From the NCBI RefSeq assembly GCF_030013595.1, contig NZ_CP122769.1: a DNA stretch of 64,000 bases. The stretch is one strand, 5' to 3'. This stretch comes from Escherichia coli. Lineage in GTDB: Bacteria; Pseudomonadota; Gammaproteobacteria; Enterobacterales; Enterobacteriaceae. The notes beneath the pieces are model-generated. The model saw nothing but the letters and a program-made list of their open reading frames with translations, ran no database searches and was not told where the DNA came from. The translations under genes were made by a program, and so were the position numbers. Below, one piece after another: positions 21,371 to 57,299 of the stretch (positions are counted from its first letter, which is position 1; each line of letters opens with the position of its first letter).

Positions 21371-21455
21371 AATTTTCCTCGTACGGCTGGTACGGCCAGC
21401 AGAAAACGTTGCTGTACAGAAAGGTGCTGCCCGGAAAGCAGCACCTTTCTGTCTG

Positions 21456-22735: not shown

Positions 22736-22757
22736 GACATCCCCTTAATTAATAAAA

Positions 22758-23859: not shown

Positions 23860-24327
23860 TCAGGACTTTTTAGCGCTGTATTCTTTTATCAGTTCATCAA
23901 CGGAGTGCAGAGCCAGCTTCTCTACCGCTTCACTTCGGGTCGAGCCACTCAGCGCAGCCAGACGGTCAATTTTTCTTAAAATCCGCATGCGTAGCGATAA
24001 TGACACGGCTGTTTTTTTATCCTTATCGAGTACGACCTTCCCTGTGGACTCACCGGTTTTCAGTTCAGCATTCTGTGCGAGCGCTTCATTCATCCGGCGA
24101 AGGGTCTTTTTATCCAGCTGGCCCGGATTAACGAGATGGTAGGAATGACCTGCCTTGCTGTATTTGATCTCCGCAGAATATGACTCGCGTAGCTCTTTGA
24201 GTGCCCGGGTTAATGTCGGCTCTGAGCATTCCAGACTGGTTATAATGTCGGCAGCGGAAACGGGCTTGCCGGTGCCCAGTAAGTTGGCAAGCTTAAAAAT
24301 CCGGGCCTGTCTGGTATTTAATTGCAT
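23860..24327 (-). CDS. terW: TerW-like DNA-binding protein
   Basis: 155 aa, position downstream of terY-terX-terY matches terW; predicted wHTH N-terminus. Confidence 0.65.
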   Translation of the reverse strand: MQLNTRQARIFKLANLLGTGKPVSAADIITSLECSEPTLTRALKELRESYSAEIKYSKAGHSYHLVNPGQLDKKTLRRMNEALAQNAELKTGESTGKVVLDKDKKTAVSLSLRMRILRKIDRLAALSGSTRSEAVEKLALHSVDELIKEYSAKKS

Positions 24328-24344
24328 CGTAAGATTTAGCCTGC

Positions 24345-25553: not shown

Positions 25554-25563
25554 TATGATTTCC

Positions 25564-27599: not shown

Positions 27600-27600
27600 T

Positions 27601-28374: not shown

Positions 28375-29515
28375 AGGTAACAATCTCCACGACGGGCGCA
28401 ACCTCAGCCAGGGCTTTAAGAAGCTGCGTGTCAATACTTTCTGCGGGTGTCTCAGTACACACAAGAATACGGTCAAACTGCTGGTGGGCGACGTTATAGA
28501 CAAAATTGGGGATGCCCAGCCCGTAGTTATCCGTAAAGGAAATGGCGGACTCAATGGCATAACCAACGGCGATAGGGGAGCGGGTGGTCGAACCATAAAG
28601 TGCCTGTGCTCCGGCAGCTTCGAGCCGTTCAGCAAGCAGGAACGGCTCCCAGACGAATTCCCCGGTCCCGAGAACCAGAATACGTTCCCCCTTGCGGACG
28701 GAGACCTCATGGCCGAGATCGGCCGCAGGTGCGAGCATCCCCAGTCGACCCCAGGACTGTTTTCCCAGGATGTCCCATTCTCCGCGTGAAGTTACGTTGA
28801 CTTTCGGCATGTCCGGGACAGGTGCATCAGGTAATGGGGTCCATCCCCACTGACCGCTTACAAGCGAAACCGAAGTGACGGGCAAGGATGTGCGCTCCGA
28901 CAGGGCGTTGCTACTCCAGTCGGTAAGCGTAACGGCGATAACCTGTTCAATATGTTGAAGCTTGCCGGTATTACGCAGGGCAGAAAGCAGGTTAATAAAG
29001 GTATTACCGGTGGTTGCCTCGTCATCAATCAAAACCAGCGTTCGTGCGTTGGTAACACGACGTCTTTTCTCTTCATCATCTGGCAGATAGATCAGATGAT
29101 CGGTGGCGTGGCTGTGTTCTTCCTTGAACTCGCAAAGTAACGTGCCATCAACCGGGTGACGGGTAGAGGTCAGATAGACAGATTCACGATGCTGGTGGCG
29201 CACTTCATCAAACACACCGGCCCCTAGCCCAACGGCGGTTTCAGCCATACCGATAAAAAGTACGGGCCCTGTCAGCGTTGCGGGGAACTGGCTGGCAAGC
29301 TGTCTGTAGGCCTGCCGCATGACTGAGGGTGGCACGGGAATGTGCCTGCCGAGTACTTTGCTGACAAACAGAAAGGCGCGTTTCGGGTTACGTCTTTCAG
29401 CGATATCAAACAGGTCATCGAGCGAAACATCACCCTGGTCGCGGGTTACCTGTATCGTACCGCATGAGAGGGTACGGCGATAAATCATATCTTCGAGGGT
29501 ATCAGACATAAACAC
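28367..29515 (-). CDS. phosphoribosyltransferase (PRTase) domain protein
   Basis: PRPP-binding motif LVLIDDEATTGNT. Confidence 0.7.
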   Translation of the reverse strand: MFMSDTLEDMIYRRTLSCGTIQVTRDQGDVSLDDLFDIAERRNPKRAFLFVSKVLGRHIPVPPSVMRQAYRQLASQFPATLTGPVLFIGMAETAVGLGAGVFDEVRHQHRESVYLTSTRHPVDGTLLCEFKEEHSHATDHLIYLPDDEEKRRRVTNARTLVLIDDEATTGNTFINLLSALRNTGKLQHIEQVIAVTLTDWSSNALSERTSLPVTSVSLVSGQWGWTPLPDAPVPDMPKVNVTSRGEWDILGKQSWGRLGMLAPAADLGHEVSVRKGERILVLGTGEFVWEPFLLAERLEAAGAQALYGSTTRSPIAVGYAIESAISFTDNYGLGIPNFVYNVAHQQFDRILVCTETPAESIDTQLLKALAEVAPVVEIVTYE

Positions 29516-29518
29516 GCC

Positions 29519-30577
29519 TTAATTCAGATGGTTAGAGAGTGATTCCGGGTAAACGATGACATCTGTGATGGATCTCACTGCAACCGGAGAAAAGGTATTT
29601 CTGGCGCTCTGGATCACCGCATCTTCAGACATCAGACCGAGCTTAAAGGCAGCAAACAACCCGGGAAGGTTCACCCCGCTGTGAAGGGTATAACCCACCC
29701 CGCCTGACGGACGCATGTTGGTTTCAAGCAGCACCGGGTTGCCATTCACATCGTTTCGCGTCTGAACATTCACCAGCCCGTCGGCCTTCATAACCCGGGC
29801 GCAGTCACAAGCCAGTTCCCAGGCGCTTCCTTCGTTTACCAGATACTGGATAGCCCCTTCCTTACGGCGTCCCACGGCTGCGAGTATTTCGCCCTTATCC
29901 GCGAGGATATCGACGGAAAATTCCGGGCCTGGCAGGTACGGCATCAAAACAAGGGGTTTAAACGACTCAGAAGCCGATGCTGCTGCAATATACTGTTGCG
30001 GACTGACCAGACGATGTTCGGGATGATTAAAGACGGCCATGGGCGAAGCACTGTCATCAAAGCGCCAGAATCCCATGCCATAGATACCCGTCACCGGCTT
30101 CACGCATACCGGGCTGTCCGAGAACGGCGGGGCCGCGAGGTGCGTCTTTAATTCTGCCAGCGTATTCACCCGCCAGGACGGTACGACCGGGAGCCCGTTT
30201 TGCTCCATAAACTGAGCAAAAGTAACTTTTTCGTCAGCCAGAGTTAACCAGTCGACGCCTGTTGCACCGGTAGTAAGGGTGGCTCCGGTCGATTCAATGG
30301 CTGAACGGTGTTCTTCAAACCACTGGCTGTTACGGCCAGTATGAATATGGTGGATGCCGTAGGTCTGAATGGTTTCCTGAATAAACTGAAGACGTTTTTG
30401 AGGATCTTCAGGTTCAGTCAAAGAATAATCGGCAACGGAAAGAATTTCATGTCTTTCGTTACGGTGGGAGGCAAATACGGTAATAGCAAAATTATTTTTT
30501 TGTGCAAATGATTTTACCCCCTGAATAATATCTCGCTGGGAGGACAAACCTTCCATAAACCAAATTTTCTTGTTCAT
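29519..30577 (-). CDS. ATP-grasp family ligase
   Basis: First gene of the ter-linked operon; ATP-grasp-like C-terminal region (..PVLLETNMRPSGG..). Confidence 0.6.
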   Translation of the reverse strand: MNKKIWFMEGLSSQRDIIQGVKSFAQKNNFAITVFASHRNERHEILSVADYSLTEPEDPQKRLQFIQETIQTYGIHHIHTGRNSQWFEEHRSAIESTGATLTTGATGVDWLTLADEKVTFAQFMEQNGLPVVPSWRVNTLAELKTHLAAPPFSDSPVCVKPVTGIYGMGFWRFDDSASPMAVFNHPEHRLVSPQQYIAAASASESFKPLVLMPYLPGPEFSVDILADKGEILAAVGRRKEGAIQYLVNEGSAWELACDCARVMKADGLVNVQTRNDVNGNPVLLETNMRPSGGVGYTLHSGVNLPGLFAAFKLGLMSEDAVIQSARNTFSPVAVRSITDVIVYPESLSNHLN

Positions 30578-30899
30578 TTTTTTTAATTATCCGGAACGCC
30601 ATGCAAATTTATGATTGAGAAGTGAGTCTATGAGTGTCTACGCTACATGTCAATCATAATATGATTAATAACTTCAGTGGTTATGGAGTGCGTCAGTGTT
30701 TTTTTAGTACCTTATAACGTATTGATATTTAAATTAAAAATAGAAAAATGAACACCATGAAAAGGATTTATTTTTGTGTTTTTGAAGAAAACTACCAAAA
30801 TTTCCCTTGTCAGAGAACTTCATCATGATATGATTTTCTTCGTCAGTTACTAAATATACCTTTGATTGTCTCGGTCATTACCATTTTAAGGAATAAAAC
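30578..30899. promoter_or_regulatory. AT-rich divergent promoter region between biosynthetic operon and terZ
   Basis: 322-bp AT-rich non-coding spacer between divergently oriented operons. Confidence 0.5.
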
Positions 30900-31481
30900 A
30901 TGGTTTCATTAGTTAAGAACCAGACGGTATCACTCAGCAAAGAATCAGCTGCATTAAGCCAGCTTCATTTCGGTCTCGGTTGGGATCCGGTTAAGAAAAA
31001 AGGTCTTCTTGGAGGATTGTTTGGAGGCAACGACTCAATCGATCTCGATGCTGGCTGCGTATTAATGGACAGCACCGGTAAAACAATTGACACCATCTGG
31101 TTCCGCAAACTGGAATCCACCTGCGGCGCTGTTGTGCACAGTGGCGATAACCTGACCGGTGAGGGTGACGGTGACGATGAGGTGATTAAGGTCAACCTCT
31201 CCCGACTGCCTGCAAACGTTGAATACCTGGCGTTTACGGTAAACAGCTTCCGTGGTCAGTCGTTCAATGACGTCGAAAACGCGTTCTGCCGCGTTGTCGA
31301 TCAAACCGGCAAAGAGCTGGCTCGCTACAAGCTGACTGAGCAGGGCTCACATACCGGGATCGTTATTTCTTCGCTGCGCCGTAATAACGGCAACTGGGAC
31401 TTTACCGCCCTTGGCCATGCCTGTCGCGGCCGCACAATTGACGATATGCACTCCGATATCGTTTCAGCGGTTATTCGCTAA
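30900..31481 (+). CDS. terZ: TerZ tellurite resistance protein (TerD family)
   Basis: 193 aa; [13 protein letters not shown] motif. Confidence 0.9.
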   Translation: MVSLVKNQTVSLSKESAALSQLHFGLGWDPVKKKGLLGGLFGGNDSIDLDAGCVLMDSTGKTIDTIWFRKLESTCGAVVHSGDNLTGEGDGDDEVIKVNLSRLPANVEYLAFTVNSFRGQSFNDVENAFCRVVDQTGKELARYKLTEQGSHTGIVISSLRRNNGNWDFTALGHACRGRTIDDMHSDIVSAVIR

Positions 31482-32638
31482 TGAACCTGACGCCGGGGGG
31501 CAATGCCCCCGTTCCAGCCCAGGAGTTGCGGGTCCGGATCACCTCGGGCGGCCAGGTGGATGCTTCGGCGTTTCGCCTGTATGCCGACGGGAAGGTGCAG
31601 GGTGATGCGGACATGGTGTTTTATGGTCAGCCACGTAACGATGATGGTACCGTCAGCCTGGTCAGTGAAGGCCAGTACTCAACCTTTACTGTCGCGCTCA
31701 ACCGGCTGAAACCTGATGTCCAGAAAATTGCGTTCACCGTGACCTGTGACGGTGGGCAGACGGTGTCCGGTCTTCGTAATCTTTCCATCGACGTGGAGCA
31801 AGGGGCTACCGGCCTGGTTAGCGGCAGTGTCGAACTGAGCGGCCGTCAGGAAGCAGCCTTAATTCTGGGTGAATTTTACCGTCGTAATAATGACTGGAAA
31901 TTCCGCTTCGTTGCGCAGGGGTTCAACGGTGGACTTAAACCGCTGGCAGAGCATTTCGGCGTAAATATTGCCGACGAACCGGCTCCCGCAGCCCCGACTC
32001 CTCCGGTTGTAACCCCTCCGCCAGTTGAGACAAAAATCAGCCTGAGCAAGGTATCGCTGACAAAAGAGAAGCCTGCAATCAGCCTGACCAAACGGGATAA
32101 CTTCGGTGAAATCCGGATCAACCTGAACTGGCACCGGGGCAGCGGCAAATCAGGCTTTGCAGGCATGTTCGGCTCCAAAGGAATCGACCTGGATCTGGGG
32201 GCCTTTGTTGAGCTTCAGGACGGGTATAAATCGGTCATTCAGGCGCTCGGTAATGCATTCGGTAATTATCGCGATGAACCGTATGTTCAGCTCAAGGGCG
32301 ATGACCGGACGGGTGATGTATCAGACGGCGAGTGGCTGCATATCAATGGACGTGAATGGAAGCATATCCGCGAAGTGCTGATTTACGCCTTTATTTATGA
32401 AGGTGTTCCCAGCTGGGACAAGACTGATGGTGTGGTCACCATTCATGTGCCGGATCAACCGCCCATTGAGACCCGCCTGACCGAAGGTGAAAACCGTCGC
32501 ACATTGTGCGCCATTGCCAGACTCGTAAACGAAAACGGCGCAATTAAAGTCGAGCGAATTAACCAGTACTTCAAAGGCCAGGACGAAATGGACCGGGCAT
32601 TTGGCTGGGGATTTCGCTGGAGCGCCGGTTCTAAATAA
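31481..32638 (+). CDS. terA: TerA tellurite resistance protein
   Basis: 385 aa with tandem TerD-like domains; 1-nt overlap with terZ stop. Confidence 0.9.
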   Translation: MNLTPGGNAPVPAQELRVRITSGGQVDASAFRLYADGKVQGDADMVFYGQPRNDDGTVSLVSEGQYSTFTVALNRLKPDVQKIAFTVTCDGGQTVSGLRNLSIDVEQGATGLVSGSVELSGRQEAALILGEFYRRNNDWKFRFVAQGFNGGLKPLAEHFGVNIADEPAPAAPTPPVVTPPPVETKISLSKVSLTKEKPAISLTKRDNFGEIRINLNWHRGSGKSGFAGMFGSKGIDLDLGAFVELQDGYKSVIQALGNAFGNYRDEPYVQLKGDDRTGDVSDGEWLHINGREWKHIREVLIYAFIYEGVPSWDKTDGVVTIHVPDQPPIETRLTEGENRRTLCAIARLVNENGAIKVERINQYFKGQDEMDRAFGWGFRWSAGSK

Positions 32639-32660
32639 CACAGCAACAAAGGAAACAGGT

Positions 32661-33116
32661 ATGAGCTTTTTCGACAAGGTAAAAGGTGCCATTAACTCTG
32701 GCCGGGACGAACTGACCCGCCAGGTTGGTCGTTTCAAAAACAAAAAATTTATGCACGGCACCGTTGCTGTATGTGCCCGTATTGCCGTATCGAGTGACGG
32801 CGTGAGTTCGGAAGAAAAGCAGAAAATGATGGGCTTTCTTCGCTCTTCAGAAGAGCTGAAGGTCTTCGATACCAATGAGGTGATCGAGTTCTTCAATAAA
32901 CTGGTTTCAAGCTTCGATTTCGATGTTGAAATCGGCAAGGGCGAAACCATGAAATACATCCTGGCGCTGAAAGATCAGCCTGAGGCCGCTCAGCTGGCCT
33001 TACGTGTTGGTATTGCCGTTGCGAAAAGTGACGGTAACTTCGATCAGGACGAGAAACTGGCCTCCCGCGAGATCGCTATCGCGTTGGGCTTCGACCCGGC
33101 TGAATTTGGCCTCTGA
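32661..33116 (+). CDS. terB: TerB tellurite resistance protein
   Basis: 151 aa from ATG at 32661 (MSFFDKVKGAINSG); the ORF-track start at 32601 is an upstream extension. Confidence 0.9.
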   Translation: MSFFDKVKGAINSGRDELTRQVGRFKNKKFMHGTVAVCARIAVSSDGVSSEEKQKMMGFLRSSEELKVFDTNEVIEFFNKLVSSFDFDVEIGKGETMKYILALKDQPEAAQLALRVGIAVAKSDGNFDQDEKLASREIAIALGFDPAEFGL

Positions 33117-33138
33117 TCCACATCCCTAAGGGTAAAAT

Positions 33139-34179
33139 ATGGTTTCCACACACATCGGCTTCCCGACTGAAACGGTCATTGTTTTCATTGCGCTTTCAGT
33201 CGGTGCCATCTTTATTGACCTGTTTATGCACCGTGATGACAAGCCCATTTCCCTGAAGAGTGCGGCGCTCTGGTCCGTATTCTGGGTTGTGGTTGCGATG
33301 GCATTTGCCGGTTTCCTCTACATCCACCACGGTGCTGAGGTTGCCAGCCTGTTTGTAACGGGTTATGCGCTGGAGAAAGTGCTGTCGGTCGACAACCTGT
33401 TTGTCATGATGGCCATCTTCTCCTGGTTCGCCGTTCCTGATCGTTACCGCCACCGTGTTCTCTACTGGGGGATCATTGGTGCCATCGTCTTCAGGGGCAT
33501 CTTTGTCGCCATCGGTACGAGCCTGCTGAGTCTGGGGCCGTATGTTGAAGTTGTCTTCGCTATCATCGTCGCCTGGACGGCGGTCATGATGCTTAAAAGC
33601 GGTGATGACGATGATGAAATTGAGGATTATTCCCAGCATCTGGCTTACCGCATGGTTAAACGCTTCTTCCCTATCTGGCCGAAGCTCAGAGGTCATGCTT
33701 TCCTGCTTAACCAGAAGGAAGTGGATGCCGAACTGGCGAAACCAGAAAACAGCGATGTCACCATTGGCCGTGGTAAAAAGGCGGCGCTGTATGCGACCCC
33801 TCTGTTCCTGTGTGTGGCCGTGGTTGAACTCTCGGATGTTATGTTTGCGTTTGACTCGGTACCGGCAATCATTGCCGTCAGTCGTGAACCGCTTATCGTC
33901 TATAGTGCCATGATGTTTGCTATCCTGGGCCTGCGTACTCTGTACTTTGTCCTTGAAGCACTGAAACAGTACCTGGTTCATCTGGAGAAGGCCGTTATCG
34001 TGCTGCTGTTCTTCATCGCGGCAAAACTGGGCCTGAATGCGACCGATCACATTTGGCATCATGGTTACAGCATCGCGGCGACAACCAGCCTGTATGTTGT
34101 ACTGGGTGTTTTGGCGCTGGGCATTCTCGCAAGCGTCATGTTCCCGGGCAAACCTGAATCTGAGGAAAAGGGGAGCTGA
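33139..34179 (+). CDS. terC: TerC integral membrane protein
   Basis: 346 aa, multiple TM helices. Confidence 0.9.
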   Translation: MVSTHIGFPTETVIVFIALSVGAIFIDLFMHRDDKPISLKSAALWSVFWVVVAMAFAGFLYIHHGAEVASLFVTGYALEKVLSVDNLFVMMAIFSWFAVPDRYRHRVLYWGIIGAIVFRGIFVAIGTSLLSLGPYVEVVFAIIVAWTAVMMLKSGDDDDEIEDYSQHLAYRMVKRFFPIWPKLRGHAFLLNQKEVDAELAKPENSDVTIGRGKKAALYATPLFLCVAVVELSDVMFAFDSVPAIIAVSREPLIVYSAMMFAILGLRTLYFVLEALKQYLVHLEKAVIVLLFFIAAKLGLNATDHIWHHGYSIAATTSLYVVLGVLALGILASVMFPGKPESEEKGS

Positions 34180-34227
34180 TCCCCTGAAGTGTTAACCTGA
34201 ACAATTACTAATCGAAGAGGTTATTTT

Positions 34228-34806
34228 ATGAGTGTTTCTCTTTCCAAAGGCGGGAACGTCTCCCTGAGTAAAGCAGCTCCGTCAATGAAAAACGTCCTGG
34301 TGGGCCTTGGCTGGGATGCGCGTTCAACAGACGGTCAGGACTTTGACCTGGATGCTTCAGCATTCCTGCTGGCCGCAAATGGCAAAGTGCGCGGCGATTC
34401 AGATTTCATCTTCTATAACAACCTGACGTCATCTGACGGTTCCGTAACCCATACCGGTGATAACCGTACCGGTGAAGGTGATGGTGATGATGAATCGCTG
34501 AAAATTAAACTGGACGCCGTCCCGTCTGATGTTGACAAGATCATCTTCGTTGTCACTATCCATGATGCTCAGGCTCGTCGCCAGAGCTTTGGTCAGGTAT
34601 CCGGTGCGTTTATTCGCCTGGTCAATGACGATAACCAGACTGAAGTCGCTCGCTACGATCTGACCGAAGATGCGTCCACTGAGACTGCCATGCTGTTCGG
34701 CGAGCTGTATCGCCACAATGGTGAGTGGAAATTCCGCGCAGTGGGCCAGGGTTATGCTGGTGGTCTGGCATCTGTATGTGCTCAGTACGGCATTAACGCG
34801 TCCTGA
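34228..34806 (+). CDS. terD: TerD tellurite resistance protein
   Basis: 192 aa; [13 protein letters not shown]. Confidence 0.95.
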
Positions 34807-34873
34807 TCGAAAAGTAACTTTTCACCCGGGGCTGTTAATGCAGCCCTCATTCAACTGTTTGCAGGAGCTAAAA

Positions 34874-35449
34874 ATGGCAGTTTCTCTCGTAAAAGGCGGC
34901 AACGTATCTCTGACCAAAGAAGCACCAACCATGAATATCGCTATGGTTGGCCTCGGCTGGGATGCCCGTGTAACTGACGGTCAGGCTTTTGACCTGGACG
35001 CTTCCGTGTTCGCAGTAGGCGAAGACGGTAAAGTGCTGTCAGATGCGCATTTCATTTTCTTCAATAACAAAACCAGCCCTGATGGCGCGGTAGAGCACCA
35101 GGGCGACAACCGTACCGGTGAAGGCGACGGTGACGATGAGCAGGTCAAAATCGATCTGACCAAAGTCTCAGCAGATATCAAAAAACTGGTGTTTGCCGTT
35201 ACCATCTATGATGCAGAAGCGCGTAAACAAAACTTCGGCATGGTGAGCAACAGCTTCATGCGCGTTTACAACAACGACAACGGCACGGAAATTGCCCGTT
35301 TCGATCTGTCTGAAGATGCCTCAACCGAAACCGCTATGGTCTTCGGTGAACTGTATCGTCATGGCGCTGAGTGGAAGTTTAAAGCTGTCGGTCAGGGCTT
35401 TGCCGGTGGCCTGGCGGCTCTTGCCTCCCAGCACGGCGTTAACATCTAA
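34874..35449 (+). CDS. terE: TerE tellurite resistance protein
   Basis: 191 aa from ATG 34874 ([13 protein letters not shown]), RBS ggagc upstream; the ORF-track start at 34670 is an extension. Confidence 0.95.
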
Positions 35450-35466
35450 AACAACGCTGAATCATA

Positions 35467-35491
35467 CCCCGGCAATGCCGGGGTTTTTTTT
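35467..35491 (+). terminator. Rho-independent terminator after terE
   Basis: ccccggca-a-tgccgggg followed by T8. Confidence 0.8.
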
Positions 35492-35877
35492 GGTTGCGAT
35501 CCGCTTTCAGGAGGGAGTAGTAGAAAGGGGACTGGAAATTTCAGAAAGCAGGTCATGTTAATTCAGACCTGAGCCTTTTAAAGGCAGGAAACGGATTTAT
35601 CTCTGGTTGCTGGTTAAAGCCGGTATTCCGTGCCTTTTATCAACAGAATGCCCCTCTGATATATGTTACTTTTGCGGTTTATGAAGGAACGGGATCTGGA
35701 ACATAAGATACCCGGTCAATCAAAATTCCAGTTCAACAGGTATAGAAACTTCAGCGTGATGAAATATGGTGTCACACCATATATACGCCTCACCAGAAAT
35801 CCAGCGTCCTGAACTAAGCCTGGGGAACATATATAAGCGCTGCGCTTTAAAAATAATCAAAAATCAGGAGAGTTAAT

Positions 35878-37119
35878 GTGAATCTACAATCCGGACAAAA
35901 CATACCGCTTCAGCAATCTGCGATCAGGCTGAATCTTCAGTACCCTGCCAAATCCGGCTTTAAAGGCGAACCCGATACCTGCCTCTTCCTGCTTAATGCT
36001 CAGGGAAAGGTAACCGGCGATTCTGACTTTATCTTTTATAATAATCTGTCTTCTCCTGAAGGGGCAGTAAAGCTCGTTACCGGTTCTCAGCAGTCCAGCA
36101 TTGAGATAGCACTGGATCGTGTTCCGGCGAACGTCAGTAAGATTGCGATCACCGTTGTCATTGATGGTGAAGATACTATCAGTGGGCTCAGTTTATTGAG
36201 CATTCAGGCTCCTGGTATCGCTGATTTTCAGGCTGAGACTCAGGGCCGCAGTGAGAAAGCAATCATCCTGGGTGAAGTATATCGGCACAATGGCGCCTGG
36301 AAGCTTCGTGCGCTCGGGCAGGGTTTCAACGGTGGTCTTGAGCCTCTGGCCATTAGCTTTGGCGTTGATGTCGCACAGCCAGCTCCGCAGCCAGCAAAGC
36401 CCGCTCGTATCAGTCTGGAAAAGAAACTTGAAACCAGATCTCCGCGCCTCGTAAGCCTCGCTAAAAAAGCCTCGGTCAGTCTCACTAAAAATAAACTGGA
36501 CACCCTTGAGGCAGCGGTTGCATTTGTACTTGACGCATCCGGCTCAATGAGTGGCCAGTTCAGTAAGGGCAACGTTCAGTCTGTGCTGGACCGCATCGCC
36601 GTTCTTGCCGCCCAGTTCGACGACGACGGTGAAATGGATGTCTGGGGATTTGGAGAGAAGCACAAGAAGTATCCAAACGTCACACTGGACAACCTGGACA
36701 CATATATTCAGTCCATTCGCGGGTCTGGAAAGCGTTCAGCCTGGGAGAACCTGCCGGGACTTGGTGGGACAAACAATGAGCCCCCTGTGATGGAAGAAAT
36801 TGTCGACTACTTTAAGGACTCGAAAATCCCGGTATATGTTGTATTTATTACCGATGGCGGGATCAGCAAGACCCGGGCGATTAAAGATGCAATCCGGCGT
36901 TCTGCCAACTACCCCATCTTCTGGAAGTTTGTCGGCCTGGGTGGTTCAAGCTACGGTATCCTCAAAAATCTGGATGACTTTACTGACCGCCGGGTTGATA
37001 ACACCCACTTCTTTGCCATGGATGATTTCGGTTCGATCAGCGATGAAAAGTTATATGATAATTTACTGGAAGAATTCAGACCGTGGATCGATGAAACAAA
37101 AAGGTTAGGCATCCTGTAA
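35878..37119 (+). CDS. terF: TerF (TerD-domain + vWA domain) protein
   Basis: 413 aa; N-terminal TerD-like domain, C-terminal vWA (VLDASGSM); GTG start with aggag RBS. Confidence 0.8.
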
Positions 37120-40303: not shown

Positions 40304-41629
40304 ATGAGCCGGAAACAGCAACGTCTGGTAATTTGGATGAACGGCATCAAAGTCGGGTACTGGGAAAAAAGCAAAGGGGTAGACAGCTTAGAATACCTTC
40401 CTGAATGGGTTGCTGACGAACAGGGAAGGCCGCTGTCATTGTCCCTTCCTTTTACTCCCGGGAACCAGGTCTGGCGTGGAAATGTGGTACGTGACTATTT
40501 TGATAATTTACTGCCGGACAGCGAAGGCATACGCAGACGTCTGGCAATGCGTTACAAGGCCGATAGCCTGGAGCCTTTTGATCTGCTGACGGAGCTGGGA
40601 AAAGACTGCGTGGGCGCGATACAGCTGCTTCATGACGGAGATGAACCCACTGATTTATATTCCGTGAAGTATCACCCGCTTACTGAATCAGAAATTGCGG
40701 CAACTTTGCGTAATACCACGGAGACATTGCTACCGGGCAGGCCAGAAGATAACGACGACTTACGTTTATCTATTGCCGGTGCTCAGGAGAAAACAGCCCT
40801 ACTGTGGCATGAAGATCGGTGGTGTATGCCGGAGGGTAATACACCAACGACGCATATATTCAAGCTACCGCTCGGACTTGTGGGGAACATGAAAGCCGAC
40901 ATGAGCTCGTCGGTTGAAAATGAATGGCTCTGCTCGGTACTTCTCGGCCAGTACGGGCTCCCCGTGGCAAGAACGCAGATTGCTCACTTTGAAGATCAGA
41001 AAGCGCTGGTGGTAGAACGTTTTGACCGAAAATGGTCAGGAGACGGACAATGGATCATTCGTTTACCCCAGGAGGATATGTGTCAGGCCCTGGGCGTTTC
41101 GCCATTACGAAAATATCAGGCGGACGGCGGGCCAGGTATATCGGAAATTATGGAGGTTCTGAGTAATTCAGACCGTGCTGAGCGTGACAAAGCGCAGTTT
41201 TTTATGACGCAGATAATTTTCTGGATGATGGCCGCAACAGATGGCCACGCTAAAAATTTCAGTATTTCTATTGGGCCACAGGGACGTTATCACCTTACAC
41301 CAAACTATGATGTGTTGTCGGCATGGCCGGTGATCGGTCATGGGAACAATCAGATATCCTGGCAGAAGTGCAAACTGGCGATGGCCGTACGTGGCAGTAG
41401 CAACTATTACCAGATATATCGAATACAACGACGCCACTGGATCAGGCATGGTGAGATAACCGGCCTGAGTAAACAGCAGACAGAGGCGATGATAGAGGAA
41501 ATCATCGCCAGAACCCCGGGTGTCATTGAACGTGTTAGCGGGCTTCTTCCGGACCAGTTCCCCCAGCAGCTTGCGGAAAGTATTTTTGATGGAATGAGGC
41601 AGCAATGCAGGCGCCTGGCTGAGAAATGA
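40304..41629 (+). CDS. hipA: HipA-family Ser/Thr kinase toxin
   Basis: 441 aa; motifs SIAGAQEK and DGHAKNFSI. Confidence 0.9.
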   Translation: MSRKQQRLVIWMNGIKVGYWEKSKGVDSLEYLPEWVADEQGRPLSLSLPFTPGNQVWRGNVVRDYFDNLLPDSEGIRRRLAMRYKADSLEPFDLLTELGKDCVGAIQLLHDGDEPTDLYSVKYHPLTESEIAATLRNTTETLLPGRPEDNDDLRLSIAGAQEKTALLWHEDRWCMPEGNTPTTHIFKLPLGLVGNMKADMSSSVENEWLCSVLLGQYGLPVARTQIAHFEDQKALVVERFDRKWSGDGQWIIRLPQEDMCQALGVSPLRKYQADGGPGISEIMEVLSNSDRAERDKAQFFMTQIIFWMMAATDGHAKNFSISIGPQGRYHLTPNYDVLSAWPVIGHGNNQISWQKCKLAMAVRGSSNYYQIYRIQRRHWIRHGEITGLSKQQTEAMIEEIIARTPGVIERVSGLLPDQFPQQLAESIFDGMRQQCRRLAEK

Positions 41630-43611: not shown

Positions 43612-43667
43612 GGGTGATGATGCCAACTTACTGATTTAGTGTATGATGGTGTTTTTGAGGTGCTCCA

Positions 43668-43943
43668 GTGGCTTCTGTTTCTATCAGCTGTCCCTCCTGT
43701 TCAGCTACTGACGGGGTGGTGCGTAACGGCAAAAGCACCGCCGGACATCAGCGCTATCTCTGCTCTCACTGCCGTAAAACATGGCAACTGCAGTTCACTT
43801 ACACCGCTTCTCAACCCGGTACGCACCAGAAAATCATTGATATGGCCATGAATGGCGTTGGATGCCGGGCAACCGCCCGCATTATGGGCGTTGGCCTCAA
43901 CACGATTTTCCGCCATTTAAAAAACTCAGGCCGCAGTCGGTAA
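43668..43943 (+). CDS. insA: IS1 InsA
   Basis: 91 aa, [23 protein letters not shown]. Confidence 0.95.
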
Positions 43944-44365
43944 CCTCGCGCATACAGCCGGGCAGTGACGTCATCGTCTGCGCGGAAATGGACGAACAGT
44001 GGGGATACGTCGGGGCTAAATCGCGCCAGCGCTGGCTGTTTTACGCGTATGACAGGCTCCGGAAGACGGTTGTTGCGCACGTATTCGGTGAACGCACTAT
44101 GGCGACGCTGGGGCGTCTTATGAGCCTGCTGTCACCCTTTGACGTGGTGATATGGATGACGGATGGCTGGCCGCTGTATGAATCCCGCCTGAAGGGAAAG
44201 CTGCACGTAATCAGCAAGCGATATACGCAGCGAATTGAGCGGCATAACCTGAATCTGAGGCAGCACCTGGCACGGCTGGGACGGAAGTCGCTGTCGTTCT
44301 CAAAATCGGTGGAGCTGCATGACAAAGTCATCGGGCATTATCTGAACATAAAACACTATCAATAA
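43862..44365 (+). CDS. insB: IS1 InsB (expressed as InsAB' by -1 frameshift)
   Basis: 167-aa ORF overlapping insA in the -1 frame. Confidence 0.9.
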
Positions 44366-44523
44366 GTTGGAGTCATTACCGGCAGCATCAACTACATCGC
44401 AAGCAGTAAGAGTAAGTGACGATGCCACAGCAAGACACAATAAAGAAAATCTGTTTTTGAACATATTTGAGACCTTTTATAAAAATAAAATAACAGGAGA
44501 ATTGTATCATTAACAGTCTAGTT

Positions 44524-46378: not shown

Positions 46379-47221
46379 ATGGCTAGGGGTAGGCGTCTCA
46401 AATCCTATTTGGATTATGAAAATGCGCTAGGTGACGGCATAGGAGTGGGCTATGGCCAAAGTTATCAGCCCTGGCTTAGAGCTCAGGACGTTAAATCCCG
46501 TGGAAACCGTTCGATAGTCTTTGGCCTTAAGACGTTTCGAAACCATCATCTCCTTTCTTCTGTCGAAAGTAACTTTTTCTATCTGGCTGAGTTTAATGAC
46601 TCGGTGATTGATATCCGGGAACAATTCCCACTCTTTCCTCTCCGGCTTACCCAACAAATAGCAAATCATCTACATTTTCAACATCCTATGGTGAGGGGAG
46701 TAAGAGGAGTACCTGTCGAAGTTCTGAATGTTATGACAACCGATTTTTTACTGACCTTGAGAACTCCTGAAGGCGGACTTCGATACAAAGCTATAGCAGT
46801 AAAACATAACGAGAGCATACCTGAACGCGAAGCCCAAAAACTTGAAATAGAGAGGATGTTTTGGCAGTTGATTGATGTTGAGTTTCAAATTTATGTTGGC
46901 TCGGAACTCAATAACGTCGTCGGTAAAAACATTTGCTGGGCTACTTCTGTATTAAGAGATGGTTCTGAATTTTATGATAAATATCCTCTTGATAAAATCC
47001 TATGGAAGCTTAAACCAGATGTTTATCCCATAGTAGGACTACGTGCAATGATTTCATCAATCTTTGGGGTAGATGCACAAGAAGCGATGATGTTATTGCA
47101 GGCAATGATTGGATTAAAAATGATAAATGTTGATTTATCATATCCAATACTCGAAACCGGTCTGATAAAGATAATTTCCAATGACCACTATATAGGACTG
47201 AACGCAAATGGATATTATTAG
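46379..47221 (+). CDS. tnsA: Tn7-like transposase subunit TnsA
   Basis: 280 aa, position and size; overlaps tnsB start. Confidence 0.75.
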   Translation: MARGRRLKSYLDYENALGDGIGVGYGQSYQPWLRAQDVKSRGNRSIVFGLKTFRNHHLLSSVESNFFYLAEFNDSVIDIREQFPLFPLRLTQQIANHLHFQHPMVRGVRGVPVEVLNVMTTDFLLTLRTPEGGLRYKAIAVKHNESIPEREAQKLEIERMFWQLIDVEFQIYVGSELNNVVGKNICWATSVLRDGSEFYDKYPLDKILWKLKPDVYPIVGLRAMISSIFGVDAQEAMMLLQAMIGLKMINVDLSYPILETGLIKIISNDHYIGLNANGYY

Positions 47222-49331
47222 GAATTCAGTCTGGCTCTCTCAAGGCACTGATTTGCTTGCAGAGGGACTTTACCGTGTTTTGGATTTTGACAGAAAGGTC
47301 GATTTGTTAATTTTGTTTAAAATAAAATCAGAAAGAACGGGTAAGCCAATCCCTTTCTCATTTTCAATGTTTAAATATTATATTGAATCAAATAGCATAA
47401 CTTGTAAAGATTATATATATCCTTCATATATGTTAGTAGATGAGAAAGAATTAACAGATAAAGACAGAGGAAGGCGAGATGAAAATTACAATATCATTAA
47501 AGATCTTGTAGATGACAGAATGTTTCTGTTCGACTATGCATTACATAAAAAGTCGCACCTTTTAATGGATTACTCAAGAAATAAAAAAATATCACAATAT
47601 ACTATCAGAACGCTTCTGGCGTTGTATTGGCGACATGGGCAGGATATTTATGCATTGCTACCCGCATTCTCGAACTGTGGCGCCGCTGGGAAAAGTAGAA
47701 TCAAACATGAAATTAAACTTGGGAATTCCAAAAAAAACAGAGCATTACCTAATGAACGATCACGTGTTTTCATTCTTAATGAAAGAGATATAAATAATAT
47801 TAGAAAATCTCTCATTACGTATCATTATAAAGTTAACGGAGATACGATAAAGAAAACATTAGAGAGACATATTGATTTGTATTTTAGGGATGAAATTAAA
47901 ACAGCAAACCTAGAAAATAGAGCTCCATATGTTCCTTCTTTAAAACAATTTTCATACTGGAATAAAAAACTCTTCACTAAAGATTTCTCGATAAATAAGA
48001 AGAACACGAAAAAAGAAATAGACCTCAAAATGCGGGCGCTTTTAGGTAGTGTGGCTAATACAACTGTTTTGCCGGGTGATGTTTTCGAAATAGACTCAAC
48101 TGTCGCTGATGTACATCTTATTTCGAGTTTAAACAGACGAAAAGTCATTGGGCGTCCTACTATTTATACAGTGGTGGATCGTGCAACAAGAATGATTGTT
48201 GGCCTTCATGTTTCTTTATACCATGCTTCATGGCGAGCCGCCCGACAAGCGTTAGCAAATTGCTTTATGCCAAAAAAAGAATATTGTAGATTATTTGGAA
48301 TCTCTATTACTGATGATGATTGGCCTTGTTCTCACATTCCATTAACATTGATGTGTGACAACGGGGAGATGATTGGTCTTAAACCTCAGGAAGAGATGAC
48401 CCCCCTGACAAAACTTGAGTTTGCGCCAGTCGGTAGAGGCGACAGAAAAAGCATTGTTGAACGCTGTTTCGGCATTCTGAATGATGAGGTTATTCATAGG
48501 CTTATTGGAACAACACGAAGGGGAAAGATTGTTAAAGGAGAGCCAACACCGCAATCCAGGGCTTGTTTAACGATTCAGGAGGTCACGTCTTTACTGATTC
48601 GGGAGATACTTGCACATAATCAGAGAACGTATGAGGAACTGGCTTATATCAATCCCTTACTGATTGAAAATGATCTCGTAATATCACCAAAAAATAGTTG
48701 GATGATAAGCTTAAAGCACGGGAGATTCAGCGCAAGAGCCGTTGGGGCCGACGAAGTGATCGCACGATTGTTAATCCCTGTGAACGCTAACATTACCGCC
48801 GGTGGGATTCAGTACAATAATCTTTTTTATGAATGTGATCCTGAAATTGCATCAGGTGTCAGAGTATTTGGAAGAACCACTTGTGAAGCAAGAATAGATG
48901 ACAATTGCGTAGATTATATATATGTAAGATTTGACAAAAATAGCATTTTCAAAAAACATTACCTACTTAAGAAAAGAGATGTATTTAAAGGGAAAGCTCA
49001 TCTTGATACAGATGTAATGGCTGATTGGGTAGATACTCAAAAAGAAATTAATTTATTTACTCTGGATTCGCTCAGCAATATCAATAATAAAGATGAATTT
49101 AACAGGAAAGGTAACGAAAGATTAAATGAAATATACGAATCTCGCCGGGTACATGGTAAAGATATTAAAAAGAACAGAAAAAATGAACTTGATTCATTAG
49201 GGCGAACTCATGTTGCTAATGGAAGATCTGAACCCCTACTTCCTTCATCCAGTAATGTTCTGCTTTTGCCTGGCCGGGAGGAGAAACAAAGATGGTTAAA
49301 AGGTAAGAAGAAGACTGAGGACGCAGAATAA
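47208..49331 (+). CDS. tnsB: Tn7-like DDE transposase TnsB
   Basis: 707 aa; DDE core region (EIDSTVADV..VVDRATRMIVG..MCDNGEM). Confidence 0.85.
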   Translation: MDIIRNSVWLSQGTDLLAEGLYRVLDFDRKVDLLILFKIKSERTGKPIPFSFSMFKYYIESNSITCKDYIYPSYMLVDEKELTDKDRGRRDENYNIIKDLVDDRMFLFDYALHKKSHLLMDYSRNKKISQYTIRTLLALYWRHGQDIYALLPAFSNCGAAGKSRIKHEIKLGNSKKNRALPNERSRVFILNERDINNIRKSLITYHYKVNGDTIKKTLERHIDLYFRDEIKTANLENRAPYVPSLKQFSYWNKKLFTKDFSINKKNTKKEIDLKMRALLGSVANTTVLPGDVFEIDSTVADVHLISSLNRRKVIGRPTIYTVVDRATRMIVGLHVSLYHASWRAARQALANCFMPKKEYCRLFGISITDDDWPCSHIPLTLMCDNGEMIGLKPQEEMTPLTKLEFAPVGRGDRKSIVERCFGILNDEVIHRLIGTTRRGKIVKGEPTPQSRACLTIQEVTSLLIREILAHNQRTYEELAYINPLLIENDLVISPKNSWMISLKHGRFSARAVGADEVIARLLIPVNANITAGGIQYNNLFYECDPEIASGVRVFGRTTCEARIDDNCVDYIYVRFDKNSIFKKHYLLKKRDVFKGKAHLDTDVMADWVDTQKEINLFTLDSLSNINNKDEFNRKGNERLNEIYESRRVHGKDIKKNRKNELDSLGRTHVANGRSEPLLPSSSNVLLLPGREEKQRWLKGKKKTEDAE

Positions 49332-52387: not shown

Positions 52388-53314
52388 ATGGTTTACGAAA
52401 ATGAATTGTGGCACAGTTTTCTTCTGCGTTCACAGATAATGTATAACTTATCCAATTGCAGGAACATAATATCAAAGCATGGCGCACTAAGGTACGATGC
52501 CTTTCCTCGTTTCGAACTGATTGATATGTACAAATTGCATAGCTTGCAGGATATATATGACATTCTTGCCACTAGAAATGGTTATATACTAACTTCCAAT
52601 ATAGTGTCGTTATCTTCTGGTGTTTACGGGTATTTTAACGCTGTTGAAGATGCCTGTCGGAAAAATTTTCACATAACTAATTCATATCCATTGGTAAACA
52701 TCTCAAACATTCGTTACTGTCACAAATGTATTGTTGAAGATATACACTCTAAAGGCATTGGTTATCTGCGTCATAGATGGTTGTTTGAATCTAAATGTGC
52801 AGTTCATAGTACCAGTTTATATGAGGTTTGTTTTGATAACTATTTGAATGCAGTGAAAGGACTTAGTGACTTAATTATAAGTGGAATAAATCCTCATGGT
52901 TATTGTTCCCTTGTGGTTGACGTTTCAAACCCTTTCAAAAATCCAGTGTATATATTACCATGTGCACGTAATAAAATTTTAAAATGGATTTCGGACAATA
53001 AAAATATGCTGATTTACTTTCTCTTTGATCTCTTCAAATGTAAGTCGCATTCAAGTTTATCTAAGGTTATCGAAGTCAAGATAATGCATGATAGATATAT
53101 TTCTGCGGTGTTCAAGATGTTAAGTGAAGTTAATTTTTGTAATTTCAACTCATTTATTTCTGATATTTTTGAGGACGTAAGTTATGCCTCTATCGGACTT
53201 GATGATTATTCTGTTAATGTGCATTTTCTCAGGCTAAGGGCTGCAGATTGTAAATTTTGCCAGTTGAATGGTAAATATTTTTGCTCACTTTACAATGTAA
53301 AATTTCTTCGCTAA
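52388..53314 (+). CDS. second TniQ-like protein (short)
   Basis: N-terminal ENELWHSFLLRS and C-x2-C-x22-C-x2-H motif (CHKC...CAVH). Confidence 0.5.
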   Translation: MVYENELWHSFLLRSQIMYNLSNCRNIISKHGALRYDAFPRFELIDMYKLHSLQDIYDILATRNGYILTSNIVSLSSGVYGYFNAVEDACRKNFHITNSYPLVNISNIRYCHKCIVEDIHSKGIGYLRHRWLFESKCAVHSTSLYEVCFDNYLNAVKGLSDLIISGINPHGYCSLVVDVSNPFKNPVYILPCARNKILKWISDNKNMLIYFLFDLFKCKSHSSLSKVIEVKIMHDRYISAVFKMLSEVNFCNFNSFISDIFEDVSYASIGLDDYSVNVHFLRLRAADCKFCQLNGKYFCSLYNVKFLR

Positions 53315-53666: not shown

Positions 53667-53966
53667 ATGAACACTCAATACGCTTTGAAGACTTTGAATC
53701 AGTTACGTCCTGTTTTAATCGGCTTTCGCAAAGCCAATGGACTGACGCAAAAAGATGTTTCTGAACGTTTGGGTATAACACAGCAAACTTATGCCCGACT
53801 AGAGGCCAACCCTGCAAGTGCGGGTTTTGAGCGTTTGTTTAGGGTGTTCAGCGTCCTTGGAGTGGAGATCGTACTTTCATCCAGGGAACCATTGTCAGAT
53901 GCAAAGCCCGAATACGGAGCTATGCACAATTATTCTTCACTTCCAGCCAGGCGGGAGAAATGGTGA
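53667..53966 (+). CDS. HipB-like HTH regulator (orphan paralogue, no adjacent hipA)
   Basis: MNTQYALKTLNQLRPVLIGFRKANGLTQKDVSERLGITQQTYARLE closely parallels hipB at 40003. Confidence 0.75.
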   Translation: MNTQYALKTLNQLRPVLIGFRKANGLTQKDVSERLGITQQTYARLEANPASAGFERLFRVFSVLGVEIVLSSREPLSDAKPEYGAMHNYSSLPARREKW

Positions 53967-54529: not shown

Positions 54530-56355
54530 ATGCGGCTCAGAAAATTAAAACTGAAAAACTTCAGAGGCTACAGAAACTCTACTGAAATCATTATTGATGA
54601 AAGCATGACGGGTATTGTCGGTCGTAATGACTTTGGGAAATCAACGCTTCTGGAAGCGCTGGCTATTTTTTTTGAAACAGAAGGAATGAAGGCTGACAAG
54701 AATGACATGAACTGTTTCAGCCTAAGAGAAGGGGACGGCCGTTTTGAAATAGCCTGTGAATTTGATGACCTGCCCGATTTTATCATGATCGACGACAGGG
54801 TGCAGACCACGCTCGCCTCAGAACATCTGCTGAATGAGGACGGCAATTTTGAAATCGTCAAAACGTTTAAAGCAACGACCTCAGGAAAACCGGAGCAGAC
54901 CTGCATCCGCTGCATCCACCCGGATGAGGAGCCCCTGAGAAATTTACTGGGCATGAAAATTTCTGAGCTCAAGGCGGTGGGAAAAGAAGTTGAAAAAAAT
55001 GTGGCGGATAAACGCACTGCATCGTTATGGCGTCAGGCCATCAGGGAAGCCGCAGCCCCCTATACCTGTTCGGAAATTATGCTGGATGTCGATAAAGAGT
55101 TCGGAACCGACACAAAATCATTATGGGGTAAGATCCTCGATTTGCTGCCCACGTATGCGATTTTCAAAGCCGACAGGGAAAGCAGCGACGGGGATTCCGA
55201 AGCTAAAAACCCCTTACAGCAGGCCGTAAAAGACGCTCAGGCTGCGCTGCAGGACAAAATTACAGCGCTGGAAAATGAGATTCAGGACAGCGTCCTGGAT
55301 GTCGCACAGAGAACGCTGGATAAATTACGTGAAATGGCCCCCGAACTCGCCAGTGAACTGACTCCACGATTTAAGGAGAAACCCAAGTGGACCTTCAATT
55401 TCACCCTGGACGGGGAAAATGGCATCCCCATCAATAAGCGCGGCAGCGGGATAAGGAGGCTTATCCTGTTGAATTTTTTCGGGCTGAGGCTGAAAAGAAT
55501 GTCGCGGGGACGCCCAGAAATGTGATTTATGCCATAGAGGAGCCTGAAACGTCACAGCATCCGAACTATCAGATGATGCTGATGAAAGCGTTACTGGCAC
55601 TGGCAGGCCAGCCGCACCGTCAGATTATCGTCACCACCCATGTCCCGGCGCTGGCCGGATTAATCCCTGTCGAAGGCGTACGTTATGTTACCCGAAATGA
55701 GGCGGGTGAACCCGTAGTAAAAATGCCGGATGACGCAGTGCTGAAGGAAGCCACTGAAAGCCTGGGGGTGCTGCCAGAGACCGGTATGGAAAGGGCGCAG
55801 GGGATTGTTCTGGTAGAGGGAAAGTCGGATGTTACTTTCCTGAGGCATGCGGCCAGTTCATTAAAACAGTCAGGTGCGCTGCCAGCCTCTCTGGAGGACG
55901 TGAAAATAGTGCCAGTCCTCATAGGAGGGTGTGGTAGCGTCAAACACTGGGTTACATTGAATCTGGCCAAAGATCTGGGGCTTCCCTGGTGCGTATTTCT
56001 GGACTCCGATATTGGGGGAGACCCTGCACAGGTTCTGTCCATCCAGAAGCGTAAAAAAGAAGTAGAGGAGGCCGGTAAGGTATTTTTCGCTACGCGCAAA
56101 CGTGAGATAGAAAACTATCTGTGCCCGGATCTTATCGAGGAAATTACTGGTGTAGCCGTCACGTTTACGGACACCTGTGACGCTAAAAAAATAATCGGCC
56201 GGGCTGTGGGAATGAAACCCGATAATGTACTAGATAAATTCTGGCCTCAGATGACATCAGAAAGAATCATCTCAAGATCAACCTATCATGACGGAACGCA
56301 GGAGAGAAGCGAGCTGGTTGAGATCCTGAGCGACATTGTATCCATGACGAGATAA
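54530..56355 (+). pseudogene. OLD-family ATP-dependent nuclease (AAA ATPase + Toprim), apparent frameshift
   Basis: Walker A GRNDFGKST; downstream frame has IEEPETSQHP and Toprim VLVEGKSDV / VFLDSD; frames switch at the T6C run 55474-55480. Confidence 0.65.
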
Positions 56356-56453
56356 TGTATTAAATAAGCATCTCAGGTGCATATATTCCGGTCCTCAACA
56401 AAGGACCGGAGTACAGAGTAGTAAAAACCCGAAATTAAGGTAATGACTCCAAC

Positions 56454-56957
56454 TTATTGATAGTGTTTTATGTTCAGATAATGCCCGATGACTTTGTCAT
56501 GCAGCTCCACCGATTTTGAGAACGACAGCGACTTCCGTCCCAGCCGTGCCAGGTGCTGCCTCAGATTCAGGTTATGCCGCTCAATTCGCTGCGTATATCG
56601 CTTGCTGATTACGTGCAGCTTTCCCTTCAGGCGGGATTCATACAGCGGCCAGCCATCCGTCATCCATATCACCACGTCAAAGGGTGACAGCAGGCTCATA
56701 AGACGCCCCAGCGTCGCCATAGTGCGTTCACCGAATACGTGCGCAACAACCGTCTTCCGGAGCCTGTCATACGCGTAAAACAGCCAGCGCTGGCGCGATT
56801 TAGCCCCGACATAGCCCCACTGTTCGTCCATTTCCGCGCAGACGATGACGTCACTGCCCGGCTGTATGCGCGAGGTTACCGACTGCGGCCTGAGTTTTTT
56901 AAGTGACGTAAAATCGTGTTGAGGCCAACGCCCATAATGCGGGCGGTTGCCCGGCAT
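56454..56957 (-). CDS. insB: IS1 InsB
   Basis: Near-identical to copy 1 InsB. Confidence 0.9.
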
Positions 56958-57151
56958 CCAACGCCATTCATGGCCATATCAATGATTTTCTGGTGCGTAC
57001 CGGGTTGAGAAGCGGTGTAAGTGAACTGCAGTTGCCATGTTTTACGGCAGTGAGAGCAGAGATAGCGCTGATGTCCGGCGGTGCTTTTGCCGTTACGCAC
57101 CACCCCGTCAGTAGCTGAACAGGAGGGACAGCTGATAGAAACAGAAGCCAC
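56876..57151 (-). CDS. insA: IS1 InsA
   Basis: Near-identical to copy 1 InsA (one substitution F to L). Confidence 0.95.
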
Positions 57152-57299
57152 TGGAGCACCTCAAAAACACCATCATACACTAAATCAGTAAGTTGGCAGC
57201 ATCACCGAAATTAATCGGGTTTGAATTGTATAAAGATTAACCGACTCCCGCGCCCAGGAACGATGTAAAATCACGCTTGTCGTGACATTTCTACAATGT

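Follow-up and report, generated by a model that had tools for sequence, protein, structure and literature searches.

OLD-family nucleases have been divided into classes according to genetic context, i.e., the presence of a UvrD/PcrA-like helicase, of a retron RT/ncRNA or of a separate Toprim gene (PMC12392090, PMC10568477). Class 1 members such as P2 Old, the Thermus scotoductus enzyme (TsOLD, structure 6P74), Vc OLD of Vibrio cholerae and E. coli YbjD/OldB are encoded by a single gene without a conserved partner. For P2 Old, both the ATPase residues and the Toprim acidic residues are required, and YbjD requires its ATPase domain (PMC10568477, PMC12392090, PMC13261556). The stretch of E. coli DNA analyzed here (64,000 nucleotides, hereafter the window) carries at positions 54530-56355 a gene of the same kind, interrupted by a one-base contraction of a coding run of seven T (T7) to six (T6). 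This is an ordinary change in a known and common OLD gene. Judged on its neighbor genes, the gene is a Class 1-type, single-gene OLD nuclease. It differs from the Class 1 genes cited above in that it rides a Tn7-like metal-resistance island and not a prophage, and in that the copy of the window is frameshifted.

The structure 6P74, which is the structural archetype of Class 1, was the closest solved relative of the repaired protein by both profile and fold, with about 17% sequence identity, an alignment covering residues 297-513 and a length of 528 aa vs. 608 aa. A profile built on 70 diverse representatives of the family, which were also used to score conservation, gave 6P74 as top match among solved structures (E 1.7e-25), followed by GajA (about 1e-19), PtuA (1.6e-16) and AriA (2.6e-8). 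The AlphaFold2 model (mean pLDDT 89.6) also retrieved 6P74 as first Foldseek match (E 1.3e-18), then GajA; the TM-scores were low (0.34-0.39), which we attribute to a differing domain orientation. In PADLOC, the first match was the AriA model (E 4.9e-57, residues 1-375), followed by the GajA and Old models at about 1e-23. This AriA match adds little, as its span is the same as that of the Pfam AAA_15 domain.

Two other OLD classes deserve comparison. GajA of the Gabija system (Class 2 OLD) has the same two-domain architecture, which is reflected in its PADLOC and PDB chain matches, but it scores below TsOLD. Unlike in Gabija, no GajB/UvrD-like helicase gene adjoins the gene in the island or in 3 of the 4 orthologous loci, and in the Pseudomonas locus a UvrD-like gene lies two genes away, past another AAA_15 gene. 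The likeness to PARIS (AriA/AriB, Class 4 OLD, including fused forms) is superficial: an ATPase-like ORF is found with a Toprim-containing ORF, but the split of the window gene at residue 316 falls inside the ATPase and not at the domain boundary (about 375-420), and it is a derived one-base deletion. A PARIS reading, prompted by the AriA match in PADLOC, was rejected, since solved AriA scored far below TsOLD (2.6e-8 vs. 1.7e-25) and since the C-terminus gave a PADLOC E of 0.0027 with AriB vs. 5.9e-6 with GajA, the OLD-like_TOPRIM and GajA/Old models being preferred. Also, the Pfam scan of the protein listed no match to DUF4435 (AriB-type). Our literature search found no experimental work on the intact protein, WP_001239419.1. 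From its family membership and from the restriction-modification (R-M) neighbors of 2 of the 4 orthologues, we infer that it would defend against phage.

Reading frames, domains and position of the break

Two overlapping frames cover positions 54530-56355 of the window, and their meeting point is a run of six T followed by C55480:

54530..55525, + strand: ORF1, N-terminal fragment, from ATG 54530 to TGA 55523-55525; 331 codons plus stop
55474..55479, + strand: T6 run, -1 frameshift site; T7 in the intact allele, codons N315-F316-F317 (AAT TTT TTT)
55480..56355, + strand: rest of the OLD frame, shifted by -1 from ORF1, without a stop between the junction and TAA 56353-56355

Residues 1-316 of ORF1 are authentic OLD ATPase sequence, and they are followed by an out-of-frame tail of 15 aa (GLRLKRMSRGRPEM) ending at the stop codon. 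In the -1 frame, the earliest possible start is GTG 55522, which overlaps the stop of ORF1 (ATGTGA, 55520-55525). The exact 331-aa product of ORF1 (P0001) is recorded on 144 contigs, and the 277-aa product of the downstream frame (P0017) on 299.

By megablast, the region matched 696 complete E. coli genome records. The best full-length matches correspond to the query plus one base and bear the annotation 'AAA family ATPase' for one undivided gene. The sequence-only reading had described two frames joining at a T6C run (55474-55480) and a continuous protein of about 608 aa once one base is restored, and had proposed a comparison with intact homologues, which confirmed both points. The ORF coordinates and an alignment with the intact copy of E. 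coli E308 (L001 6131-7957, WP_001239419.1, 608 aa) place the junction at this run, the missing T (T7 to T6) being the sole difference between the two alleles, and adding one T to the window gene gives exactly the 608-aa protein WP_001239419.1. The T6 allele is already known as a frameshifted pseudogene from the RefSeq annotation of other genomes: in E. coli ETEC1730, CX21, NCTC_86 and FCI54, PGAP annotates it as 'ATP-binding protein, frameshifted' plus 'TOPRIM domain-containing protein', and such copies differ from that of the window only in replicon and in the downstream IS1.

With the repaired T7 sequence, Pfam showed an AAA_15 match at residues 1-375 (E 5.4e-67) and an OLD-like_TOPRIM match at residues 423-494 (E 3.7e-6). 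The motifs, with their conservation in the family, are as follows:

54620..54646, + strand: Walker A / P-loop GRNDFGKST, residues 31-39; G36 and K37 invariant
55442..55459, + strand: ABC signature motif GSGIRR, residues 305-310; G305, S306 and G307 invariant
55531..55548, + strand: Walker B AIEEPE, residues 335-340; E337, E338, P339 and E340 invariant
55630..55641, + strand: H-loop VTTH, residues 368-371; T370 and H371 invariant
55810..55830, + strand: Toprim catalytic glutamate motif LVEGKSD, residues 428-434; E430, G431 and D434 invariant
55996..56010, + strand: Toprim DxD motif FLDSD, residues 490-494; D492 invariant, D494 at least 90% conserved

By its ATPase motifs, its Toprim motifs and its overall fold, the repaired gene is an OLD-family nuclease; the complete ATPase domain belongs to the repaired T7 sequence, the window copy being interrupted at codon 316/317. 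The Pfam domains and the profile and fold matches to 6P74 thus bear out the assignment to an OLD-family ATPase-Toprim gene made from the sequence alone. LVEGKSD (E430) and FLDSD (D492/D494) had also been rightly taken as Toprim motifs. The assignment of IEEPE to the Toprim part must be corrected: it belongs to the ATPase as its Walker B motif (A335-E340), which aligns to IEEPE of TsOLD and lies inside AAA_15.

The frameshift site itself (F316/F317; F316 invariant and F317 at least 90% conserved among the 70 representatives) lies between the signature motif (G305-R310) and Walker B. In the AlphaFold model, residues 316-317 are within helix 306-325, directly ahead of the Walker B strand (332-337), and the shift therefore cuts the ATPase core and not a domain boundary. 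Thus, the frameshift does not part the ATPase from the Toprim domain, as had been proposed, since Walker B and the H-loop also fall after the shift, inside the ATPase. As the Class 1 OLD proteins characterized so far depend on an intact ATPase, the T6 allele, if real, should be null.

Plasmid context and distribution of the T6 allele

The window is part of an IncHI2 plasmid and can be aligned over its full length with the Salmonella plasmid CP117034.1 (99.986% identity), which together with OY754830.1 is its nearest record. Over the 64 kb, the window and CP117034.1 differ by 8 substitutions, 5 of which fall in IS1, and by a single indel, which is the T run of the OLD gene. This gene is a cargo of a Tn7-like element (tnsABCD plus a 308-aa TniQ-like ORF) with a sil/pco copper/silver resistance cluster. 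Its surroundings include the following features:

53667..53966, + strand: HipB/XRE-like helix-turn-helix gene, about 560 bp upstream of OLD
56388..56409, no strand assigned: inverted repeat CCGGTCCT...AGGACCGG, between the OLD stop and IS1, read from the sequence
56439..57206, - strand: IS1, inserted 84 bp past the OLD stop

The helix-turn-helix gene was found in every annotated island copy examined and is absent beside the orthologues elsewhere. Downstream of OLD lie IS1 and copM, and the inverted repeat probably serves as a shared terminator of the convergent OLD and copM genes. The IS1 insertion is unrelated to the frameshift, because it is shared by E308 and CP117034.1, which both carry T7.

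Orthologues with 71-79% identity were found in Xenorhabdus, Marinomonas, Pseudomonas and Roseateles. In each of the four genes inspected, a single ORF of 608-610 codons runs without interruption; no neighboring gene is common to the four loci, and 2 of them adjoin type I R-M genes. The intact protein thus represents a highly conserved and widely transferred Class 1-type OLD lineage, extending from Enterobacteriaceae to Pseudomonas, Marinomonas and Roseateles, and is a reasonable candidate for study independently of the frameshift.

With a 91-bp query spanning the run, which tells T6 from T7, T6 was detected in 11 of 681 records of complete E. coli genomes and in 7 of 292 plasmids of PLSDB (1.6-2.4%). 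The corresponding T8 query detected no T8 allele in either set (0/681 and 0/292). In a broad assembly collection, the truncated product was present in 192 index blocks and the intact protein in 40,668, so that T6 represents about 0.5% of blocks. For 184 of these 192 blocks, the longest carrying contig was below 200 kb, as is usual for short-read assemblies. The use of contig-length classes of T6 and T7 carriers as a signal of sequencing platform was rejected: blocks are classed by their longest contig, which biases the abundant intact allele to long classes, and the two distributions are therefore not comparable. Finally, a 4.9-kb region was compared in 29 copies (19 T6, 10 T7). Of the 20 flank haplotypes, 13 included T6 copies and 5 contained both alleles; for the haplotype of the window, the T7 twin is CP117034.1. 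As T6 is present on many haplotypes, it arose, or was called, many separate times.

Mutation or miscall in this record

The sequence-only reading had left three alternatives for the missing base, i.e., a recently inactivated gene, a homopolymer sequencing error or a slippage-prone, phase-variable site. The first two both occur at this site, and the third did not withstand the comparisons described in the next section. For the record analyzed here, we consider that there is about an even chance that T6 is a real and recent knockout. It is also quite possible, albeit short of an even chance, that the plasmid truly has T7, with OLD intact, and that a long-read basecaller or consensus step undercalled one base.

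Several observations speak for such an undercall. The records of strain NCTC86 disagree at the run, with T6 in OZ489144.2 and T7 in LR217818, LT601384, CP019778 and the near-identical B-2207 record, which shows that a T6 call can be an artefact; over 42 kb, the sole differences between OZ489144.2 and LR217818 are three one-base homopolymer deletions. Other T6 carriers are noisy: E. fergusonii 40A shows 46 one-base deletions and no insertion in 14 kb, and NCYU-24-74 and CX21 present additional homopolymer indels. The deletion bias is strong, with T6 in 18 complete records and T8 in none, as undercalling predicts, and the T7 run of silC likewise shows 151 contracted vs. 1 expanded products, which points to a generic process. 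T6 is also commoner in the complete, long-read-era collections than in the broad one, the units (records and blocks) being not strictly comparable. As two IS1 copies and an IS21 are included in the window, a long-read origin is probable, and none of the closest relatives of this record shares its T6. More generally, homopolymer errors which fragment genes in long-read assemblies are a recognized problem (PMC12007338, PMC8011154).

The quality of the window itself tells against this explanation. Runs of 6, 7 and 8 bases in the window number 69, 19 and 7, respectively. A noisy assembly would be expected to show many homopolymer indels, but the whole-window census against CP117034.1 found one, and the other 94 runs of at least 6 bases agree with CP117034.1, which argues against a generally noisy assembly. 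With about 26 runs of at least 7 bases at risk, no other indel was present in the 64 kb, whereas an error rate of the NCTC86 type (3 per 42 kb) predicts about 4-5. Moreover, T6 is present in numerous contigs of short-read size and passes down within lineages, which indicates that the allele exists in nature. It is common to lineages which are clean in the regions compared, namely Belgian ETEC chromosomes and plasmids, FCI54 and ERR7225265, and pSE_AH228, pSE228A and GCA_974498655. Such sharing within clean and related assemblies from different projects points to a real mutation. Six Logan run assemblies (26-62 kb) were inspected and showed no further indel in the OLD gene. Our literature search for the platform used to sequence the Belgian ETEC17xx genomes found nothing.

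If the knockout is real, we propose that replication slippage deleted one T from the coding T7 run in this plasmid. Ribosomes would then go out of frame midway through the ABC signature helix and meet a stop 15 codons on. The N-terminal product would keep Walker A and the signature motif and would be devoid of Walker B, the H-loop and the Toprim domain, and any downstream product would be devoid of Walker A. The outcome would be a recent pseudogene private to this plasmid, and the change would be a homopolymer indel at background rate, neither regulated nor programmed. The IncHI2 plasmid would thereby have lost a probable anti-phage nuclease kept by almost all its relatives, and the case would be a further example of the decay of an accessory defence gene through homopolymer slippage. 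Whatever the status of this copy, at least one RefSeq record that otherwise looks clean contains a miscall of the T7 run, and further T6 carriers are long-read assemblies with obvious noise. Because of such miscalls, censuses of defence systems which count pseudogenes in complete genomes mix knockouts and artefacts.

Possible residual expression and switching at the run

We also considered that the T6 allele could still be expressed, either by a -1 slip on T_TTT_TTC (55474-55480) or by reinitiation at the GTG codon, giving two fragments which would reassemble. The frame-0 sequence of the T6 allele, AA[T TTT TTC], formally fits the X_XXY_YYZ pattern of a slippery heptamer, on which tRNA-Phe can re-pair, and a -1 slip would be followed by CGG GCT GAG, as in the wild type, which restores the peptide LNFFRAEAEK exactly. 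An AGGAGG motif 6 nt upstream of the run would suit recoding, and the overlap between the ORF1 stop and the GTG start (ATGTGA) would suit reinitiation. However, the 88-nt sequence downstream did not show any stimulatory structure (fold z-score of -0.17 vs. shuffled sequence), and slippage without stimulation would yield very little product. The near-full-length family matches listed were all single polypeptides of roughly 580-680 aa with both domains, without any conserved two-frame layout, and the nucleotide features invoked for recoding are not kept in the orthologues. For reassembly, the T6 fragments would be without residues 317-331, which are part of an invariant segment. The heptamer exists solely through the deletion, and the site does not present the features of a programmed -1 frameshift. 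We therefore regard this explanation as scarcely credible and treat any read-through of the T6 allele as incidental and very low. The following structure lies directly 5' of the run:

55444..55471, + strand: imperfect hairpin, GGGATAAG-GAGG-CTTATCC core; AGGAGG at 55462-55467

As a terminator, this hairpin is a candidate by pattern only and was rejected, 3 such sites being found in the region vs. 2.8 expected from shuffled controls.

Defence genes are plausible targets of on/off variation, and this counts for a contingency locus, in which a slippage-prone T run would let a costly defence nuclease alternate within populations between an off state (T6) and an on state (T7). The recurrence of T6 on many haplotypes would fit this view. 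Also, the OLD gene contains five runs of at least 6 bases, each of which has recorded frameshift alleles. For these runs, and for the runs of at least 7 bases in neighboring genes of the island, we counted the contigs which carry the exact truncated product predicted after loss (-1) or gain (+1) of one base:

OLD T8, codon 46: -1, 381; +1, 93
OLD A7, codon 155: -1, 1; +1, 357
OLD T7, codon 315 (frameshift site): -1, 144; +1, 2
OLD A6, codon 509: -1, 1; +1, 0
OLD A7, codon 553: -1, 13; +1, 23
tnsB A7, nt 376: -1, 253; +1, 300
tnsB A8, nt 523: -1, 515; +1, at least 1000
tnsB A7, nt 1065: -1, 51; +1, 1
silS A7, nt 211: -1, 74; +1, 76
silC T7, nt 408: -1, 151; +1, 1

The T7 run of OLD behaves like that of silC, and neither an excess particular to this gene nor any hint of targeted switching is seen. 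Runs of equal length in tnsB, silS and silC show the same or higher frameshift counts, and for the same reason selection for losing the defence gene was rejected. The expanded state is nearly absent, with 2 T8 contigs vs. 144 T6 contigs and none in the 973 complete records, and T7 is present in about 98-99.5% of copies. The run is just 7 bases long. Besides, the peptide NFF is invariant and the tract is not: Pseudomonas reads AAC TTC TTC CGC, and Xenorhabdus and Marinomonas have T6. The suggestion of a phase-variable site thus fails on the missing T8, on the unconserved tract and on the counts in tnsB, silS and silC, and we hold a contingency locus to be highly improbable. The same small likelihood is given to a version in which T7 and the other coding homopolymers form a low-rate on/off switch, the leaky T6 state keeping a trace of defence through T_TTT_TTC slippage and being able to revert. 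Phase variation and programmed frameshifting are, even taken together, very unlikely.

More broadly, the peptide LLNFFRAEAE is invariant in the orthologues and its codons differ, and the GC-rich orthologues of Pseudomonas and Roseateles have zero runs of at least 6 bases anywhere in the gene. The T7 run is an accident of codon choice.

Homopolymer-length differences in paired records and in tnsB

Two RefSeq records of the same strain, NCTC86, were compared over 42 kb (positions 233000-275000 in each). The differences between LR217818.1 and OZ489144.2 were exactly three one-base homopolymer deletions, all of them in OZ489144.2:

Deletion 1 of 3: T7 run of the OLD gene
Deletion 2 of 3: C6 run of silS, in the context CCCCCCTGG
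Deletion 3 of 3: A8 run of the DUF2933 gene

Each of these three genes is annotated as a pseudogene by PGAP in OZ489144.2, and the three pseudogenes are probably artefactual.

A homopolymer also occurs in the transposase gene of the Tn7-like element that carries the OLD gene as cargo:

47208-49331, tnsB, with an A8 run at nucleotide 523 of the gene

Since the truncated TnsB product predicted from an A8 to A9 frameshift was found on at least 1000 contigs, and that predicted from an A8 to A7 frameshift on 515, our data suggest that the transposase gene is broken, really or only as called, in a large share of the Tn7-like sil/pco islands.

The hairpin beside the T-run

We also observed that, at 55444-55480 within the OLD coding sequence, a hairpin with the sequence GGGATAAG-GAGG-CTTATCC and the T-run after it form an intrinsic-terminator-like pattern. 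A shuffled-sequence control indicated that sites combining a terminator-like hairpin and a T-run were present at the level expected by chance. The hairpin, which includes a perfect AGGAGG, derives from the AGG AGG codons for two conserved arginines (RR) in the signature helix.

Genes around OLD in the island and in Pseudomonas

Open reading frames between tnsD and the OLD gene include:

52388-53314, + strand, 308-aa ORF directly 3' of tnsD
53667-53966, + strand, orphan HipB/XRE-like helix-turn-helix gene, with the OLD gene 560 bp downstream

The 308-aa product had no NCBIfam match, and its similarity to the TniQ model of PADLOC was weak (E 1.2e-5, over residues 3-144). The Tn7-like element may thus have in it a second target-selection protein of the TniQ family. 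The HipB/XRE-like gene, which has no adjoining toxin gene, was found in all annotated island copies examined and was missing next to the OLD orthologues of other genera. Its role could be that of a local regulator, or the gene could be what remains of a toxin-antitoxin pair.

In the orthologous locus of Pseudomonas sp. MBLB4123 (L037 5001-11724, CP196711.1), hsdM and hsdS precede the OLD gene. The genes after it encode another AAA_15 protein of 577 aa, a protein of 309 aa and a NERD/UvrD-like helicase. This region looks like a defence island, possibly with an additional ATPase-helicase system.

IS1 copies and plasmid backbone

Two IS1 copies are present in the window:

56439-57206, IS1 adjoining the OLD gene
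43613-44380, IS1

Between the copy adjoining OLD and its counterpart at this site in the Salmonella plasmid CP117034.1 there are 5 differences, compared with only 3 in the rest of the 64 kb. This could be due to gene conversion involving the IS1 copies, or to repeats having been mixed when the assembly was polished.

Judged from the corresponding annotation of CP117034.1, the window also holds a complete HipA-family toxin gene (40304-41629) with its HTH partner upstream. The large ter cluster for tellurite resistance, together with its VWA, kinase and phosphatase genes, lies at 17168-37119 on the same basis. Both are standard IncHI2 backbone content.
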